Assembly (NCBI GenBank): GCA_003345555.1
Contig: PRDJ01000065.1
Location: 1 to 22,162, forward strand
Direction of reading: 5' to 3'
Length of the DNA stretch: 22,162 nucleotides
From: Candidatus Thorarchaeota archaeon
GTDB taxonomy: Archaea > Asgardarchaeota > Thorarchaeia > Thorarchaeales > Thorarchaeaceae
The notes beneath the pieces are model-generated. The model searched no databases. It was not told the DNA's origin and saw only the letters and a program-made list of their open reading frames with translations. Positions 4,952 through 16,262 of this stretch are shown here, piece after piece. Each line of letters opens with the position of its first letter. Within the stretch, counting starts at the first letter, position 1. The translations under genes were made by a program, and so were the position numbers.

Positions 4952-6856
4952 TTATCTTCTACGGGCGAAGACAGTCAACACAACAACAACTACTGCCGCT
5001 ACTGAACCAATGATTACGACATATGTCAGTGTGTCAACGGGACCCGCCGACGTTGTCGTTGTAGTGGTCGTTGTACTAGTAGTACTTCCAGCCCAAGCAA
5101 GAGAGAAGTACGCCCGCGTGGCTATGTTGCCGCTTGTGTCATTGGCAACGACTTTGACTGCGATTGTCTTGTTCTCGAGACCAGATATCGTGGCAGAATA
5201 CACTCCACCTACTTGCGTCATCGGAACGGTCACTGTTTCCGTGTCTAGAATATATTCCAGCATGACGGTATCGACGTTGTCTGGATCGGTTACAGAAGCA
5301 CTGAAGACAACGGGTTGGTCATTTAGCGGAGAGCTCGGAGTCCACTGAACGGCGCTTATCCTAGGACCCACTTCGTCTACGTCAGGTATTGTCCCTTGTG
5401 TGCGATTCGTAACCCAATACAGGAAGTTCTCGACTACGTGAACATTGTCAAAATCGGTCTTTCCGTAATCGAAGTCACTGAAGAATGTGGTTCCTGCTAC
5501 CAACAATCGCAGAGCCCCTACCTGCTCGATTGCCATCAGCGGAGTCTGATTTCCATATTGCCCGTCGTCCGTGTCATCATAGACAACTTGGATTCCCGGT
5601 GGCACTTGGTCGGTCTGATATCCAGTGTGGTCCGCGTAGATTATGGGCAGGACCGGACCGTCGACCGTGAAGTAGAGGCTGGATGGCGAGAATAGTGTAA
5701 TGGAACTCACATTCTCCGTAAGACCGGCAGTTTGACTAGCAGCAGGAATGACTGTGAGGTCGTTGTACCATGGCTGATATGTTCCTGTCATGTAGACGTT
5801 GTCATCATTGATTCGGATGTGAGAACCAATGGCTTCGAGTATTTGATTGGGTCGGGCATCGTCCACATTAGTTGAGAAGTCTCCCCGCCCTGTCAACAGA
5901 ATCGACTTGTTTCCTGAAGAAGCCCACGTAGCGATATTCGATAGTTCATTAGCGGAATACGCATTGAGCGCGCACGTGGCTATCAGAAGGTCGACGTCTG
6001 CCAGCGAGGTCGCGTTGATCGCCGCGTATTGGATTCTCATCTCGAATCCGGCTCTTGCCAGCGTTGCATTGACTGCGTTGAGCTGTGCGCCAGTGGCATA
6101 GTCGTTTGAGTGAGCATAGTCAATGAGGGCAACATATTCAAAGGCATAAGAGACATCTGGAGCATTGATTCCCAGAGTGAGCGTGTGGAATAGACTGAGC
6201 GTTGCATTAATCGCTCTCGAAACGCAGGCCTCAGTAAGTGCTTTGATCGTCGCATTAGTGGCTATCATTCTTGAGTCGCTGCTCGGATATGCCTCAACGA
6301 CAATGTCGTAGTATTGATGTGCGAAGGTGGCACTCTGTACAACCAACTCTGTGACGTTCGGTATGTACGTCTCTGATGGTGTGGTGAGGCTGAGGCTGTC
6401 GAGGTTGTCATTTGTATCTCTTTCGTAGGCAGCATGCGCGGTGGAGTTCGGCCCTGTGTGAGTCGGCGTGCACGGGTCAGAAGAATAGTGCAACATTACA
6501 CCCGCCGCGAAGAACCCACTTTCCCAATTGCCCGCGGTGAAGTTGTCTCTAGCGAAGTTGAACCATCTGGTAGCGGCCTGAGGAGCAGTATACTGTCCGG
6601 TCTCAGGGTAGTATAGGTGATTGTCCCAGTCCTGCCACGTAGTGTCAGGAGTCGTGGATCCCTCCATAATCTCCGGAGTATAGTAGTCGAAGGCACTAGC
6701 CCAGCTAGCATTCGTGATACTGCCAATGGCCTCTGTGGCTATGAACTGATGAGTAGCTAGTCCCCAGGCACTAGCTGGGCTGGCCATGGAAAGTATCACT
6801 GCTACTGGCATCAATGGCACTACAAGAAGCATCAATGCAAACCATTGCTTCCGCAT
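4952..6856 (-). CDS. Secreted, C-terminally anchored Zn-dependent phospholipase C / S1-P1 nuclease-family protein with GldG/IFT52-like (GIFT) and Ig-like domains
   Basis: Signal peptide ending ASA|WGLATH, which places the Zn-ligating Trp at the mature N-terminus. Motifs EGSTTPD, DNHLY, LHYSSD..TPTH and HAAYE follow. Then come a LIDYAHSNDY...L-DVDLL...GNKSILLTG domain, a Thr-rich linker, a TM and RRR. The track start is 6880; a TTTAAT box at 6883-6888 favours a leaderless start at ATG 6856. Confidence 0.85.
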   Translation of the reverse strand: MRKQWFALMLLVVPLMPVAVILSMASPASAWGLATHQFIATEAIGSITNASWASAFDYYTPEIMEGSTTPDTTWQDWDNHLYYPETGQYTAPQAATRWFNFARDNFTAGNWESGFFAAGVMLHYSSDPCTPTHTGPNSTAHAAYERDTNDNLDSLSLTTPSETYIPNVTELVVQSATFAHQYYDIVVEAYPSSDSRMIATNATIKALTEACVSRAINATLSLFHTLTLGINAPDVSYAFEYVALIDYAHSNDYATGAQLNAVNATLARAGFEMRIQYAAINATSLADVDLLIATCALNAYSANELSNIATWASSGNKSILLTGRGDFSTNVDDARPNQILEAIGSHIRINDDNVYMTGTYQPWYNDLTVIPAASQTAGLTENVSSITLFSPSSLYFTVDGPVLPIIYADHTGYQTDQVPPGIQVVYDDTDDGQYGNQTPLMAIEQVGALRLLVAGTTFFSDFDYGKTDFDNVHVVENFLYWVTNRTQGTIPDVDEVGPRISAVQWTPSSPLNDQPVVFSASVTDPDNVDTVMLEYILDTETVTVPMTQVGGVYSATISGLENKTIAVKVVANDTSGNIATRAYFSLAWAGSTTSTTTTTTTTSAGPVDTLTYVVIIGSVAAVVVVVLTVFARRR

Positions 6857-7081: not shown

Positions 7082-7094
7082 GAAAGACCCTATA
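7082..7094 (+). promoter_or_regulatory. Promoter-like motif GAAAGACCCTATA (copy 1)
   Basis: Identical 13-mer at 10132-10144 and a 1-mismatch copy at 8600-8613; all three are intergenic and upstream of plus-strand units. Confidence 0.5.
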
Positions 7095-8599: not shown

Positions 8600-8613
8600 A
8601 AAGACTCTATAAG
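8600..8613 (+). promoter_or_regulatory. Promoter-like motif AAAGACTCTATAAG (copy 2)
   Basis: 13/14 identical to AAAGACCCTATAAG at 10133-10146; 43 nt before ATG 8656. Confidence 0.55.
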
Positions 8614-9756: not shown

Positions 9757-9928
9757 GTTGGGAGACCCGTCGAACAACTGCATAAGTCGCACGATTCGTA
9801 TGAAAATGCTCTTTTTCCATTTCAACCAATGAGCTGATTTATATTCAACCTCCGCATTATGTACCATTGTGGTTGGTTGGTCTGCAGGGCTCGTTTTCGT
9901 TACATGCCCTCATTTACGAAACTCCCCC

Positions 9929-10004
9929 CTCCTACCACGATTTACCCTGCGGGCCCCAGCCACACCCTGTGATTACGGGCGTGATAGCGGGAATCTGGTA
10001 GGAG
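9929..10004. other. Intergenic long stem-loop / candidate sRNA
   Basis: CTCCTACCA (9929-9937) pairs with TGGTAGGAG (9996-10004), continued by GATT/AATC and CCC-GC/GCGGG, with an inner CAC-ACCC...GGG-CGTG hairpin. TTTATATT at 9838-9845 lies upstream. Confidence 0.4.
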
Positions 10005-10131: not shown

Positions 10132-10146
10132 GAAAGACCCTATAAG
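10132..10146 (+). promoter_or_regulatory. Promoter-like motif GAAAGACCCTATAAG (copy 3)
   Basis: 33 nt before GTG 10179; matches the copies at 7082 and 8600. Confidence 0.55.
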
Positions 10147-10178
10147 AGAATAATGCGAAATATCAGTCGGAGATATCG

Positions 10179-12050
10179 GTGCAAAAGGGGGATGTCTTCT
10201 ATAGTTTCTATACGTTGTCCATTCTGGTCTATACGATTATCAGCGTAACCTACTTCTGGAACAACAAGGCTGTCGCATACGCGACGATAGGCTTTGGTTT
10301 GATAGCTGCTGTCATGGTTCTCATAACTGCTATCTGGCCGGCCAATCTGAGCGTGGATCAAAAGACACAACTTCGTGAACTAATTAAGGAAAGAAGAAGT
10401 CTGCCCATAGCACTGGTTGCCAGCCAGATGGGCATGTCAGTCGCCAAGGCTGCCGGGGTCTTGCGGCGAACTGGTTTTCTTGCTCTGTCGTCAGATGCAT
10501 CTACTGTGCTCAGTATTACTCGGCTGACTGAAGACCTCCTCTCCCACGCGGACACTATGGGGAAAATCGATGTTCATGCGGTTTGTGCCGAATGGTCCCT
10601 TGATGAGAGATTCTTGGTTTCCTTGGTTCCAAAGATGAGCAAGGACGTGATAGCGAATAACGCAGGTAACCTCTATTCTAGGTCCGCCCTTGAGAAGATT
10701 GTGGAAACTGAATTGGCAACCAAGGGAAGATTCGACGCCCGAGAAGAGGCAATCAAGAGAGGCCTTACGCTACAAGGCTCCGACGTCGTCTTTTCGCTGG
10801 CCAAGCTCAAGATACCTGTATTGGTGACCATTGCCGGAGCATATTTGCGAAAGGACATGGTCATTCGTAATCTAAAAAGCACCCTTGACGAAAGAGGCGT
10901 GCTTGACCTCGGCGTTGAGTCGAGGAAACTCGGAGTCTATGATGCAGCCCTGTATCTAGCAGATGCTCTTACGGACACATCACACATTAGAATCCCGGGG
11001 ACGTCCCTGATTGCCGATAAGTCTTGGATAACCGATCTCCAGCGAAGGGCAAGAGAGATGGGTGTCGTCAACCTGAAGGAATTTGCCGATTCTCTTGGAA
11101 TATCTAGTGCCAGTCTGGGATTGGTGCTCTCTACTTACTTGCAGGGATTTGTGGATGAATCGACAGGGATATTCTATGTGCGTGGAGCCCCTGTGTATAC
11201 TCCTGCAGCCGGGAGACCGAAAGAAGCGTATGCCGCCAGAGCTGTTACGACAGATGTACAGGTCCTTCGGGGTGGCGAGTTTGTCGGGAATAGGCTCCGA
11301 TACAAGGTCAAGGTACTGAATAACACGAGGTTCGTCATAACTGATGTTACCGTTAGCTTGGTCACATATCCTCGCGACGCGATGTCAGTAGAAGGTCCCA
11401 TTGTCAAGACCATTGCCAAGATTGACCCAAGCGGTTTCGACAGCCCGTTGTTTGAGTTCTTGCCAACAAAGGACTGTGTCAAGGGCGATATCATTGCTAT
11501 GACATCCTATGTTGATCATGAGGGGAAGCCGCACACGGCAATGACGGAACCATTCACTGTCCGAGCAGTATGTGACCTTTTGATCCCTGAGAACATCACC
11601 CCCGAACAGTTTGAGCTTAGACTTGCGGACTTGAGCCATGGCGAGATGACGTTCAAAGTTGAGGACTGGACACCCGAGGAAATGCACTCAAAGGCACTGC
11701 AGGTTCTCGAGAAGTCCAACTTCTCGGAAGTGACTTCAAATCAGAGCACGATTGGAGAACACATCCAATCGAGAATCACTGGGTGGGCTCGCGGGAAGTA
11801 TACAAGAAAGAATCTTGGAGTTGAGGTCACAATAACTGGCAGGCCTGGAGTTAAAGGGGCTACTTGCTCCGTCAGGATGTCAGGCGAGGATGAAGCCATG
11901 ATAATGCCGGCAATTGACGAGATGTCTCAGAACCTGACTGCTTGGCTTTGTCCCATGTGCGGTGGTGACATGCCAGAACATGCGGTGAGTCTGATTCGCG
12001 AAGGGAAGCATAGCAAGTGTCCCTTCTGCGGCGTGACGGTAGGCAGATGA
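10179..12050 (+). CDS. 2-TM protein with tandem winged-helix (UFL1/PCI-like) repeats, adaptin/coatomer appendage-like domain and Zn ribbon (paralog B)
   Basis: Two N-terminal TMs; repeated G-x-[IVLF]-[DN]-x4-A-x2-[LW]G units (GKIDVHAVCAEWSL, GRFDAREEAIKRGL, GVLDLGVESRKLGV, GVVNLKEFADSLGI). Same C-terminal cassette as 8656-9756, ending in CPMC-x20-CPFC. Confidence 0.8.
   Translation: MQKGDVFYSFYTLSILVYTIISVTYFWNNKAVAYATIGFGLIAAVMVLITAIWPANLSVDQKTQLRELIKERRSLPIALVASQMGMSVAKAAGVLRRTGFLALSSDASTVLSITRLTEDLLSHADTMGKIDVHAVCAEWSLDERFLVSLVPKMSKDVIANNAGNLYSRSALEKIVETELATKGRFDAREEAIKRGLTLQGSDVVFSLAKLKIPVLVTIAGAYLRKDMVIRNLKSTLDERGVLDLGVESRKLGVYDAALYLADALTDTSHIRIPGTSLIADKSWITDLQRRAREMGVVNLKEFADSLGISSASLGLVLSTYLQGFVDESTGIFYVRGAPVYTPAAGRPKEAYAARAVTTDVQVLRGGEFVGNRLRYKVKVLNNTRFVITDVTVSLVTYPRDAMSVEGPIVKTIAKIDPSGFDSPLFEFLPTKDCVKGDIIAMTSYVDHEGKPHTAMTEPFTVRAVCDLLIPENITPEQFELRLADLSHGEMTFKVEDWTPEEMHSKALQVLEKSNFSEVTSNQSTIGEHIQSRITGWARGKYTRKNLGVEVTITGRPGVKGATCSVRMSGEDEAMIMPAIDEMSQNLTAWLCPMCGGDMPEHAVSLIREGKHSKCPFCGVTVGR
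11256..12050 (+). repeat. Duplicated 264-codon cassette, copy 2
   Basis: See 8962-9756. Confidence 0.95.
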
Positions 12051-13841: not shown

Positions 13842-16262
13842 TTGCAGAGAGAAGGGTTACTAACGGTATTCGCGGTTGCTCTGTTTGTCTCGAGTGCGCT
13901 AGCGCCGGTCGGAACACTCTCATACCTTCCCCCCAGGACGACTTGGGCTGAATCATCTAGCGTGCAGGCGGCACTGTCCAACGGCGAAACCGAGCAATTA
14001 ACAGTGACAGTCTCAGATGACTCTTGCGTTGCCGATTCCGTGCCGGACACCAACTTCAATACCTTCGGGTCTCTCTTTGTCGGAATGGAACCATATGAGA
14101 CAATCATCGGTCGTAGCTGGCTGAAGTTCAATCTCTCGCATGTGCCTGACACTGTGAGAATCCTAAGCGCTGAGATGTTTGTCCAGGTGTATGCGGAATA
14201 CGAGTCATACGGAGTAGCTGATCGCCCGATCGGAAGTTACTACTCAGCGAATGATACGTGGAAGGAAAGCACAATCACTTGGAACACTGCGCCCACGTTC
14301 TCCTCTTCGCCGAGCTATGTCATTTCTAGTCCCCCCAGCCCCAACATGTTTGTTCCGTTTTACTGGTATTCTTGGGATGTTACGGCGGACGTGAGAACAA
14401 CTATCGCAGGCGACAAGATACTCACTGAGGTCCTTAAAGTCGTTAATGAATCCGAGTTCGTCTCGTGTTTCAAGTATTTCTACGATAGAGAATCTCTTTA
14501 CTTCAATGCCTCATATCTCGCCCTTACGTATACGACTCCCGTGGCCAGCAGTCTAGCCGTAGATGGTTATTCCACCGTTCCACACATTGACTACATAATG
14601 GACTCTGCTCCAGATCTTTCGTGGCAGTTCTCTGACAGCGATTCAGGTGACATCCAGAAGGGCTACGATTTGGATGTGTATGAAGGAACAAGCACAACCG
14701 GAATCCCGATTTGGCAGACGAACACAACCGAGCTCGTCACAATCTACTCGGGTGCTGCATCCGCCAATGCGAGGCCCTTCGCCACTTCCGGCGAAATGAG
14801 ATACCAGATGAAGATTCCCAAGTCAATGCTTTCGAGAACAGGGGTCGTTGACAAGCTGTACATCCAAGTGACCGATTCCGCGACAGTGGTTCTTCAGGAC
14901 TTGAGTGTCGCGATGTTGAGCGTTAGCTCAAGCGCAGACCTGGGAAGCACATTCGCGAGCAACTACGAAGGCCTAACTCCTGTGCAGGTCCTGTATAGCG
15001 AAGAATACAGTGTAACGATCACTGACTCTTGGCTTGTGATTGACGTGCAGAATACATTCGTCCTGAGCAACAGGTCCAACTTGCTTATAGAGCTCCGATT
15101 CATGGACAACATAGGCGACTTTGTTAATACGTTCTACACGACGGCGTCAACCGGAGCATCAGTTGCGTACACATATGGAGCGGGCGCATACACAAGCACA
15201 ACGGCCGGCGTTAATGCCACCAGAACTCACAACATAAAGATTGAGTTCGCCAGCACCGAAGTCTTCGCTGCTGGCATCGGCGCGAACAGCTACCCGTTCA
15301 ATTGGGCCACTGCCAAGATGCAATTCAAGTACAACAAGTCTATAATCAACACTGAGGGTTACATCGACCGAATTCTGTTTGGAGTGAACGAGCTGGATGC
15401 ATCGGCTACATTGTATAACCTCACTATGCTGCTTGTTGAGACTCCCGTTGAAGGCATACTGTACCCGACTTTCTCAGCAAACTATGGCGGGGTCACTCCA
15501 ACAGTCGTCCTTCAAGAAACAGAGTACCGGCCCACGAACCTTGGTCAATGGCTCGTCTTTGATGTGGCGAACAGTTTCTATTACTCCAACTCTCACGACC
15601 TGTTGATCGAAATCAGTTTTGACAGCAGGGCTGGCGACGGGATGCTTGCACGGTACAAGGCCAATGGTGGCGGATACCGGTCATGGAACATGACTGATTC
15701 CCACGGAGCTACATGCAGTCGAGATGCTGCCACATATGAGCTAAACCTCGACATGATTCATTCTGAGCAACAGCTGATGTATGGAGGTTCGCCGCTCGTT
15801 AACGGGACGACGTACTACTTCCAAGCGAAGGTTTGTGATAGCACGGGCGTCTGGTCGTCCTTCTCGAGCCTAGTCTTCAGATACCAGGCAATCCACGGAG
15901 TTCCAACATGGGGAAACCTCACTGTGACTCCGAGTCCGGTAGTACTTGGGCAACCAGTGACGGTATCGATAGATGTCGAGTACTTCTTGGGAGTGAACAA
16001 TGTCCTCATTGAATACGGCGGTTCGAACTACAGCATGTTAGCTCTGGGCGTCGTTTATTCACACACGTGGACGCCAAGCGCAGCTGGAGTCGTGAACTTC
16101 ACTATCTATATGGAATCCTTCACACGCGACTGGGACACAGCTTCGGGCTCGTTTGAAGTCCAGCAAGGTGGCTTCGATATGACACTGCTGATAGTGGGAG
16201 GCGTCGCCGCTGCTGCAGTCGTAGTTGTTGTACTCCTCTTATACAGCAGACGAAAGAAGTAG
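13842..16262 (+). CDS. Cell-surface protein: signal peptide, DNRLRE domain, FN3-like domain with two inserted tandem repeats, Ig-like domain, C-terminal TM
   Basis: DSCVADSVP..N..LFVG...RSWLKFNLS...W-ES-ITWNTAP (DNRLRE). Two ~170-aa repeats (FASNYEG-TPVQVL...WLVIDV / FSANYGG-TPTVVL...WLVFDV), many N-x-S/T sequons, and a TM plus RRKK. Confidence 0.85.
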   Translation: MQREGLLTVFAVALFVSSALAPVGTLSYLPPRTTWAESSSVQAALSNGETEQLTVTVSDDSCVADSVPDTNFNTFGSLFVGMEPYETIIGRSWLKFNLSHVPDTVRILSAEMFVQVYAEYESYGVADRPIGSYYSANDTWKESTITWNTAPTFSSSPSYVISSPPSPNMFVPFYWYSWDVTADVRTTIAGDKILTEVLKVVNESEFVSCFKYFYDRESLYFNASYLALTYTTPVASSLAVDGYSTVPHIDYIMDSAPDLSWQFSDSDSGDIQKGYDLDVYEGTSTTGIPIWQTNTTELVTIYSGAASANARPFATSGEMRYQMKIPKSMLSRTGVVDKLYIQVTDSATVVLQDLSVAMLSVSSSADLGSTFASNYEGLTPVQVLYSEEYSVTITDSWLVIDVQNTFVLSNRSNLLIELRFMDNIGDFVNTFYTTASTGASVAYTYGAGAYTSTTAGVNATRTHNIKIEFASTEVFAAGIGANSYPFNWATAKMQFKYNKSIINTEGYIDRILFGVNELDASATLYNLTMLLVETPVEGILYPTFSANYGGVTPTVVLQETEYRPTNLGQWLVFDVANSFYYSNSHDLLIEISFDSRAGDGMLARYKANGGGYRSWNMTDSHGATCSRDAATYELNLDMIHSEQQLMYGGSPLVNGTTYYFQAKVCDSTGVWSSFSSLVFRYQAIHGVPTWGNLTVTPSPVVLGQPVTVSIDVEYFLGVNNVLIEYGGSNYSMLALGVVYSHTWTPSAAGVVNFTIYMESFTRDWDTASGSFEVQQGGFDMTLLIVGGVAAAAVVVVVLLLYSRRKK

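Follow-up and report, generated by a model that had tools for sequence, protein, structure and literature searches.

Of all parts of the UFM1 pathway, UFL1 and DDRGK1 are the ones whose evolution is least understood, and both appear to predate UFM1 (PMC10183829). A gene of an Asgard archaeon raises the question of what their winged-helix scaffold may be used for in a protein that joins it to other modules. The gene lies at positions 10179-12050 of a 22,162-nt stretch of Candidatus Thorarchaeota DNA (assembly GCA_003345555.1, contig PRDJ01000065.1), hereafter the window, and encodes a protein of 623 residues, P0001. The original prediction, made from the letters alone, described a UFL1-like winged-helix array fused between a membrane anchor and a coat-like ear, and took this as a hint of an ancestral link between ribosome handling at membranes and coat adaptors. 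It proved correct as architecture, overstated as biology and only partly new. We hold the architecture and homology of P0001 with high confidence, and consider it fairly likely that the protein is a non-catalytic, membrane-tethered scaffold or adaptor of Thorarchaeota.

Architecture of P0001

The features of the gene are as follows; all lie on the + strand.

10179-12050, +: whole gene of P0001, 623 residues, with a transmembrane (TM) hairpin, five winged helices, an appendage and a zinc ribbon (translation of the open reading frame (ORF), free of stops)
10194-10250, +: hydrophobic helix 1 of the predicted membrane hairpin, residues 6-24 (Kyte-Doolittle scan)
10269-10340, +: hydrophobic helix 2, residues 31-54, preceding a K/R-rich stretch (Kyte-Doolittle scan)
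10353-10514, +: winged helix 1, residues 59-112, basic, isoelectric point (pI) 10.9 (AlphaFold2 (AF2) model)
10515-10679, +: winged helix 2, residues 113-167 (AF2 model)
10680-10850, +: winged helix 3, residues 168-224 (AF2 model)
10851-11018, +: winged helix 4, residues 225-280, aligned by profile with winged helix 2 of UFL1 (AF2 model, profile)
11019-11180, +: winged helix 5, residues 281-334, conserved best of all units (AF2 model, profile)
11181-11255, +: Pro/Ala-rich linker of low confidence, residues 335-359 (predicted local distance difference test (pLDDT) below 50 at the end of the model)
11256-11591, +: appendage subdomain 1, immunoglobulin (Ig)-like beta-sandwich, residues 360-471 (model, Foldseek, VIA-align)
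11601-11942, +: appendage subdomain 2, alpha/beta platform resembling the TATA-binding protein (TBP), residues 475-588 (model, Foldseek, VIA-align)
11943-12047, +: C-terminal CPxC...CPFC zinc ribbon, residues 589-623 (four Cys invariant in 30 homologues)

The AF2 model of residues 55-350, built on an alignment of 23 sequences, has a mean pLDDT of 87.8 and a predicted template modelling score of 0.75. It contains five consecutive winged-helix units, each with the helix (H) and strand (E) order H-E-H-H-E-E, at 10353-11180, in agreement with the four to five repeats that had been proposed at 10356-11185. The two peptides quoted in support of that proposal are present in P0001 as residues 116-150 and 237-259. 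Identity between the five units is just 8-25%, and the repeat is therefore visible mainly as structure, accompanied by a weak pattern, L..G.hD...A..lG.

A membrane anchor had also been predicted, and it corresponds to the hydrophobic segments at residues 6-24 and 31-54. These would form a hairpin in the membrane, and we infer that the remainder of P0001 is cytoplasmic because a K/R-rich stretch follows helix 2, on a positive-inside reading. The N-terminus is the same in a close orthologue, P0003 (51%), which was one of 22 phmmer matches, with E values down to 3.8e-81, obtained from 1.8 billion representatives. Many of the matches are Thorarchaeial proteins of about 650 residues, in which about ten winged helices follow a TM helix at the N-terminus. 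Several other Thorarchaeial matches (P0033, P0036, P0037, P0041 and P0053) have the same array, flanked by a TM helix on one side and by the same C-terminal module on the other. The genome under study has one winged-helix array and three appendage cassettes.

Kinship of the array with DDRGK1-UFL1

Searched alone, P0001 gave little. The whole protein, each winged helix and the C-terminal module returned only sub-threshold noise against Pfam; P0001 and its pieces did not match the UFL1 family (PF09743) even at E up to 10, nor did the six-frame translation of the genome match it, and phmmer with P0001 found no match among PDB sequences. The DDRGK model (PF09756) had no match on the P0001 gene and only weak matches located elsewhere in the genome. 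The homologues were more informative. PF09743 was matched by 11 of the 23 family members (best E 1.2e-7), more than any other Pfam family, with PCI and EAP30 matched by two members each. Relatives that score above the PF09743 cut-off include P0035 (40.8 bits), P0040 (24.9 bits) and P0069 (74 bits).

We compared a profile of the 23 homologues with the PDB. Its first match, at E 3.8e-7 over about 230 positions, was 8b9x_A, the engineered DDRGK1-UFL1 chimera; UFL1 was found at 1e-3, and no PCI, ESCRT-II (endosomal sorting complex required for transport II) or SelB chain appeared at a comparable E. A subfamily profile made only from the seven appendage-fused sequences again ranked 8b9x_A first (E 7e-6) and UFL1 second. 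Fold searches pointed in the same direction. Foldseek ranks 1-5 in the PDB were all UFL1 or the chimera (E 2.6e-10 to 1.5e-8); SelB followed at 3.5e-4 and ESCRT-II at about 2e-2, with ESCRT-II, RPC62 and PCI all at 1e-2 or weaker. VIA-align placed 8b9x_A at the top (Z 10.8, root-mean-square deviation (rmsd) 8.2, 229 residues aligned) and SelB next (Z 8.8, 108 residues), while single PCI winged helices reached a Z of about 8.6 over 58 residues, PCI chains aligning to one unit only. Profile and fold searches thus agree in preferring UFL1/DDRGK1 over PCI, ESCRT-II, SelB and RPC62, and the best matches are not unrelated winged-helix proteins. Homology of the array to that of DDRGK1-UFL1 is well supported, because the profile result is independent of geometry.

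The same searches bear on whether the array might be a generic winged-helix spacer of the PCI, ESCRT-II or SelB kind, its UFL1 matches reflecting no more than the geometry of tandem repeats, a possibility that the original prediction had itself kept in view. P0001 has no Pfam match of its own, the repeat register varies with the method, and P0069 scores higher with PCI (82 bits) than with PF09743; moreover, the top Z lies in the range that VIA-align flags as a possible common repeat arrangement, with single PCI units not far below it. However, the geometry-independent profiles rank the chimera first over some 230 positions, PF09743 is found in 11 members against two each for PCI and EAP30, and six orders of magnitude in Foldseek E separate UFL1 from the next family. 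The PCI model itself (PF01399) did not match P0001 and was weak in only 2 of the 23 relatives, and the model of P0001 has no helical-repeat part. We consider a generic spacer very unlikely.

Within the homologous array, the family profile pairs winged helix 1 of P0001 with the DDRGK1 winged helix of 8b9x, and an N-terminal anchor is present as well. The two residue pairings with human UFL1 given in the original prediction link equivalent positions of a repeat, but not in the best register, and as a register they are rejected. The first human string does occur in UFL1 (8b9x_A). It had been paired with winged helix 2, and the profile aligns it with winged helix 4, a shift of two repeats.

An appendage of the adaptin/COPI type

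The C-terminal module was modelled with a pLDDT of 85 as a beta-sandwich, an alpha/beta platform and a four-Cys ribbon. Foldseek ranks 1-17 were COPI gamma and beta and AP2 alpha and beta2 appendages, spanning both subdomains (best E 8.5e-11). In an unbiased scan of 48,161 chains, VIA-align returned AP2 alpha 1w80_A first (Z 14.7 over 210 residues, model residues 3-232), with beta2 3h1z_A at Z 14.2 and 2mj7 at Z 13.2 over the platform. Judged by its predicted fold, the ear is a genuine adaptin/COPI-type appendage, as the term trafficking-type ear had anticipated. It is recognisable by fold alone: the profile of the C-terminal module returned only zinc-ribbon noise from PDB sequences, and PF02883, PF02296 and PF09066 had no match in 30 members at E up to 1, where only GAE_BBS1 and TRAPPC13_C appeared, weakly.

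The Ig-like sandwich followed by a TBP-like platform is shared with the ears of AP2 alpha (1w80/1b9k), beta2 (1e42) and gamma-COP (1pzd/1r4x). Unlike these, the ear of P0001 has no HEAT-repeat trunk, matches no Pfam appendage family and is followed by a C-terminal zinc ribbon; the orientation of its subdomains also differs, with an rmsd of 10-13 Å over both. In eukaryotes, an appendage of this build is a hub for short peptide motifs. An FxxxW-type appendage motif was not found when the platform consensus was read by eye. Appendage domains in archaeal and Asgard proteins linked to ESCRT have been read as interaction hubs (Makarova et al., 10.1101/2024.02.06.579148). The ribbon drew only weak, generic zinc-ribbon matches from Pfam; those to zf-Sec23_Sec24 (19 of 30 members, best E 0.014) we take as generic ribbon similarity, which lends no support to a relation with COPII.

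The appendage and ribbon recur as a cassette. One further copy lies just upstream of the P0001 gene:

8656-9756, +: tandem paralogue of 366 residues, with a hydrophobic N-terminus and the same appendage/zinc-ribbon cassette, without winged helices

The last 265 residues of P0001 are 71% identical to this paralogue, and the similarity has a sharp boundary at P0001 residue 359. Among 76 sampled genomes of the family, 72 have the cassette, in one to eight or more copies that are often in tandem. It sits either behind a TM helix that follows extracellular Ig/PKD, beta-helix or propeller domains, or on a soluble zinc-ribbon array. Because it follows the TM helix behind extracellular domains, the cassette behaves as a cytoplasmic tail module. 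The Thorarchaeial family, with an ectodomain, a TM helix, optional winged helices, the appendage and the zinc ribbon, resembles a group of surface receptors, each with its own adaptor tail built in, and the Asgard cultures that now come within reach would allow this arrangement to be tested.

The soluble form is represented in this genome by its third cassette, on contig C55 at 5241-6023 (L007:34-2310, +), within a protein of 758 residues whose N-terminal 480 residues consist of about seven CxxC...CPxHG zinc-ribbon-like repeats. Most of the sampled genomes of the family have an orthologue of about 760 residues.

DNA or RNA binding is common among winged helices, and the SECIS-binding array of SelB is the second-best structural family, so that P0001 could be thought of as a membrane-tethered nucleic-acid binder, either an anchored transcription regulator or an RNA-binding factor resembling the SelB array. 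The basic character of winged helices 1 and 3 would suit this. The array as a whole, however, is near neutral (pI 7.95) and three of its five units are acidic; its closest relatives, UFL1/DDRGK1 and PCI, use their winged helices in protein contacts, and both the fusion to an appendage hub and the membership in a receptor-like family point to protein scaffolding. A role in binding nucleic acids therefore appears highly improbable.

Relatives in Asgard archaea

The combination of array and ear is not confined to P0001. Fusions of a domain like E3 UFM1-protein ligase 1 with adaptin/COPI C-terminal domains and with Vps28/Vps23 were described in Asgard archaea by Liu et al. in a 2020 preprint (bioRxiv 10.1101/2020.10.19.343400), and Asgard relatives with zinc ribbons and a Vps28-C-like end (family f9) have been linked to sorting of the ubiquitin/ESCRT type. 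PF09743 is matched above its cut-off in 102 of 301 sampled Asgard genomes, and in one family in 62 of 68, in ORFs of about 790 residues. An example from family f9, built as Liu et al. described, is P0069 (L020:433-2799, -; 788 residues), with zinc ribbons, winged helices, an appendage-like region and a weak VPS28-C end; its Pfam scores are 74 bits for PF09743, 56 for DDRGK, 82 for PCI and 22 for VPS28.

We aligned our profiles with P0069 using hhalign. The winged-helix profiles matched its array with a probability of 95-96% (E 3.8e-8 and 7.4e-9), and the appendage profile matched the part that comes right after the array with a probability of 96.8% (E 2.3e-10). Because the winged-helix profiles align just upstream of the appendage match, the array-plus-appendage core of P0001 is, on these profile alignments, colinear and homologous with that of P0069. 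In both P0001 and the family of Liu et al., a UFL1/DDRGK-like array precedes an appendage made of an Ig-like sandwich and a platform, and both are restricted to Asgard archaea. They differ at the two ends and in the array itself. P0001 has a TM hairpin where the other family has N-terminal zinc ribbons, five winged helices instead of four, and a final zinc ribbon of 35 residues instead of a Vps28-C-like bundle, so that the proposed link to ESCRT-II is missing. VPS28 had no Pfam match on P0001, which lies below all Pfam thresholds, unlike P0069.

P0001 can thus be described as the Thorarchaeial, membrane-anchored version of an Asgard-wide module of UFL1/DDRGK-like winged helices plus appendage. 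The membrane hairpin, the five complete winged helices, the zinc-ribbon end and the Thorarchaeial context are new here. The fusion architecture of UFL1-like, adaptin/COPI and Vps28/Vps23 domains was already known (bioRxiv 10.1101/2020.10.19.343400), and an Asgard origin of UFL1 and DDRGK1 had already been proposed (PMC10183829). The suggested ancestral link between membranes and coat adaptors is therefore less new than it had seemed.

Outside the orthologue, the closest relatives of the array are the Thorarchaeial proteins of about 650 residues (P0035 and others), at E values of 1e-8 to 1e-17. They too begin with a TM helix, and some pass the PF09743 cut-off; in contrast to P0001, they have about ten winged helices and neither an appendage nor a zinc ribbon. 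Such arrays were present in two genomes of the same genus (e.g., L009 = G120:C12) and were not found in the genome under study.

Two further observations concern the wider family. In P0069, a DDRGK-type winged helix (PF09756, 56 bits) stands directly before, and overlaps, the UFL1-type array (PF09743, 74 bits). With both types of unit in one chain, as far as the Pfam matches go, P0069 is in keeping with the eukaryotic DDRGK1/UFL1 pair having arisen when a single-chain array was split. Separately, genomes of Asgard family f5 (e.g., G115:C194:11986-12591) have ORFs of about 255-285 residues that match the winged-helix profile (positions 6-180) and PF09743 (117-265). By these matches, they look like minimal stand-alone UFL1/DDRGK-like arrays.

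Scaffold or UFM1 ligase

UFL1 is a scaffold-type E3 and has neither catalytic residues nor a catalytic motif. Its N-terminal helix binds UFC1 and is essential for activity, and its first winged helix is a half-domain completed by DDRGK1 (PMC10702826). On the ribosome, the C-terminal domain of UFL1 and a loop fill the tRNA sites and the peptidyl transferase centre (PTC) of the 60S subunit, with UFBP1 providing the membrane anchor (PMC10937380). The eukaryotic UFL1-DDRGK1(UFBP1) pair (PF09743, PF09756; PDB 8b9x, 8ohd, 8qfc, 8c0d) resembles P0001 in its tandem winged-helix array, and UFBP1 resembles it in being anchored by an N-terminal TM segment.

In contrast to that composite domain, split over two proteins, the array of P0001 is one chain of complete winged helices. 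The UFC1-binding N-terminal helix is absent from P0001, where winged helix 1 starts four residues after TM segment 2. So is a partial first winged helix of the UFL1 type, all five units being complete in the model. In place of the UFL1 C-terminal helical domain and PTC loop, there are the appendage and the zinc ribbon, and the UFM1-interacting region is likewise lacking. P0001 is not a UFL1 orthologue: PF09743 does not match it, and both the N-terminal helix for UFC1 and the C-terminal domain of UFL1 are missing. We found nothing that points to ribosome handling or ligase activity, the UFC1- and ribosome-binding parts of UFL1 being absent, and the step from architecture to ribosomes in the original prediction is not supported.

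The rest of the pathway was searched for in the genome. No Pfam model of Ufm1, UFC1, CDK5RAP3, UFSP, UFL1 or ubiquitin had a match in the 93%-complete sequence. The Ufm1 model also matched none of 301 Asgard genomes, which we read as insensitivity of the model and not as absence, and Ufm1-like proteins have been reported by structure in nine Asgard clades (PMC12962969). The absence of UFM1 genes is soft, because the model is empty in all these genomes despite the structure-based homologues. Picchianti et al. (2023) argued that UFL1 and DDRGK1 arose in Asgard archaea, predate UFM1 and may act independently of it (PMC10183829).

These data allow a reading of P0001 as a scaffold E3, or E3 adaptor, of a divergent UFM1-like or ubiquitin-like system at the membrane, for example at translocon-docked ribosomes, with the array playing the part of DDRGK1-UFL1 and the hairpin that of the DDRGK1 anchor. 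The homology of the arrays and the parallel with the anchoring of UFBP1/DDRGK1 (PMC10937380) would agree with this, as would the structure-based Ufm1-like proteins of the nine Asgard clades (PMC12962969) and the existence in Thorarchaeota of TM-anchored arrays of about 650 residues above the PF09743 cut-off. Nor can any motif argue against it, UFL1 being free of catalytic residues. Nevertheless, such a role seems unlikely: no helix precedes winged helix 1 to bind UFC1 (PMC10702826), the appendage sits where UFL1 has its C-terminal ribosome-binding domain, the array is near neutral, Pfam models detect none of Ufm1, UFC1, CDK5RAP3, UFSP and ubiquitin in the genome, and Picchianti et al. place the Asgard proteins before UFM1, perhaps independent of it (PMC10183829). 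P0001 probably serves as a scaffold for docking and not as a UFM1 ligase.

A proposed role at the membrane

As a scaffold, P0001 would be held in the cytoplasmic membrane by its two-helix hairpin. The five winged helices would form a semi-rigid cytoplasmic arm that spaces and presents protein-binding surfaces, and the appendage and zinc ribbon at the end of the arm would recruit partners through short motifs. The protein would then gather soluble partners at the membrane, so that proteins can be sorted or membranes remodelled; ligation of UFM1 would not be its task. By analogy with what has been proposed for its Asgard relatives, the pathway is probably one of these two, and ESCRT-III genes are present in the genome.

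Several points weigh against this proposal. The function of P0001 is read from domain identity. It lacks the Vps28-C/steadiness-box element that ties its Asgard relatives to ESCRT, and the window contains no ESCRT or ubiquitin gene. Gene neighbourhoods of the relatives are uninformative, one of the proteins of about 650 residues being encoded near a P-type ATPase, a pantoate transferase and an ABC transporter. On the side of the array, the Z margin is modest (10.8 vs 8.8 for SelB), repeats inflate such scores, and the repeat register is ambiguous by one to two units between methods, VIA-align being one unit off the profile. Finally, the Pfam model does not reach the Asgard Ufm1-like proteins, which have diverged too far, and a cognate modifier may exist.

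An alternative closer to the original prediction is that the arm docks large ribosomal subunits or translocon complexes, while the appendage couples the site to sorting or coat-like machinery. We regard this as unlikely. If true, membrane anchoring of the scaffold, as in P0001 and the arrays of about 650 residues, would predate eukaryotes, the endoplasmic reticulum (ER) and canonical UFM1, and the combination of ER ribosome surveillance with adaptor hubs would have a direct precursor in archaea. P0001 is a tractable object for asking which role the UFL1/DDRGK1 scaffold had before UFMylation, being a single intact chain that is membrane-anchored and has an adaptin-type hub attached. It also lets one ask what archaeal appendages bind, which matters for the question of how the sorting and coat adaptors of eukaryotes arose.

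Gene, promoter-like box and genomic neighbourhood

The window corresponds to one contig (C65) of a 2.28-Mb genome that is 93% complete. The closest relatives of P0001 in protein searches were all labelled Thorarchaeota (Asgard group), a protein identical to it is on record in the collection searched (P0002), and DNA nearly identical to the window is present in wetland metagenomes; run X8, which contains small pieces only, was left out where habitat is concerned. The P0001 gene starts with a GTG codon, which is preceded by two signals:

10133-10144, +: promoter-like motif of the type formed by the transcription factor B recognition element (BRE) and TATA box, AAAGACCCTATA, about 35 nt upstream of the GTG start (motif scan of the window)
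10169-10172, +: GGAG site resembling a Shine-Dalgarno sequence, about 7 nt before the GTG start (read from the sequence)

The promoter-like box AAAGACYCTATA has three matches in the window, at 7083-7094, 8600-8611 and 10133-10144, compared to 0.13 expected by chance. The first precedes a TPR unit, the second the 366-residue paralogue and the third the P0001 gene. The shared box suggests that the TPR unit and the two ear-domain paralogues are regulated together.

One wetland metatranscriptome library (X7) contained 151-nt contigs that lie inside the P0001 gene, each with at most one differing letter, and near-identical ones in the paralogue gene. These short contigs leave stretches of both paralogue genes uncovered; neither those stretches nor the gap between the genes carry any information. 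DNA carry-over is possible, and the contigs give only a weak hint of transcription.

Other genes of the window encode TPR proteins, fumarase, a CBM96 surface protein and gamma-glutamyltranspeptidase, and have no functional link to P0001. The surface protein (13842-16262, +; 806 residues) combines CBM96 with Ig-like domains and carries a hydrophobic segment at its C-terminus. It belongs to the ordinary surface proteins of archaea and lacks the cassette. Between the two paralogue genes, an intergenic segment of about 50 nt (9894-9943) has a contig depth about five-fold higher. It forms the end of another contig of 12 kb, and loose ends were seen at 9943 in two DNA runs; probably, the segment marks an assembly junction or is a short dispersed repeat.

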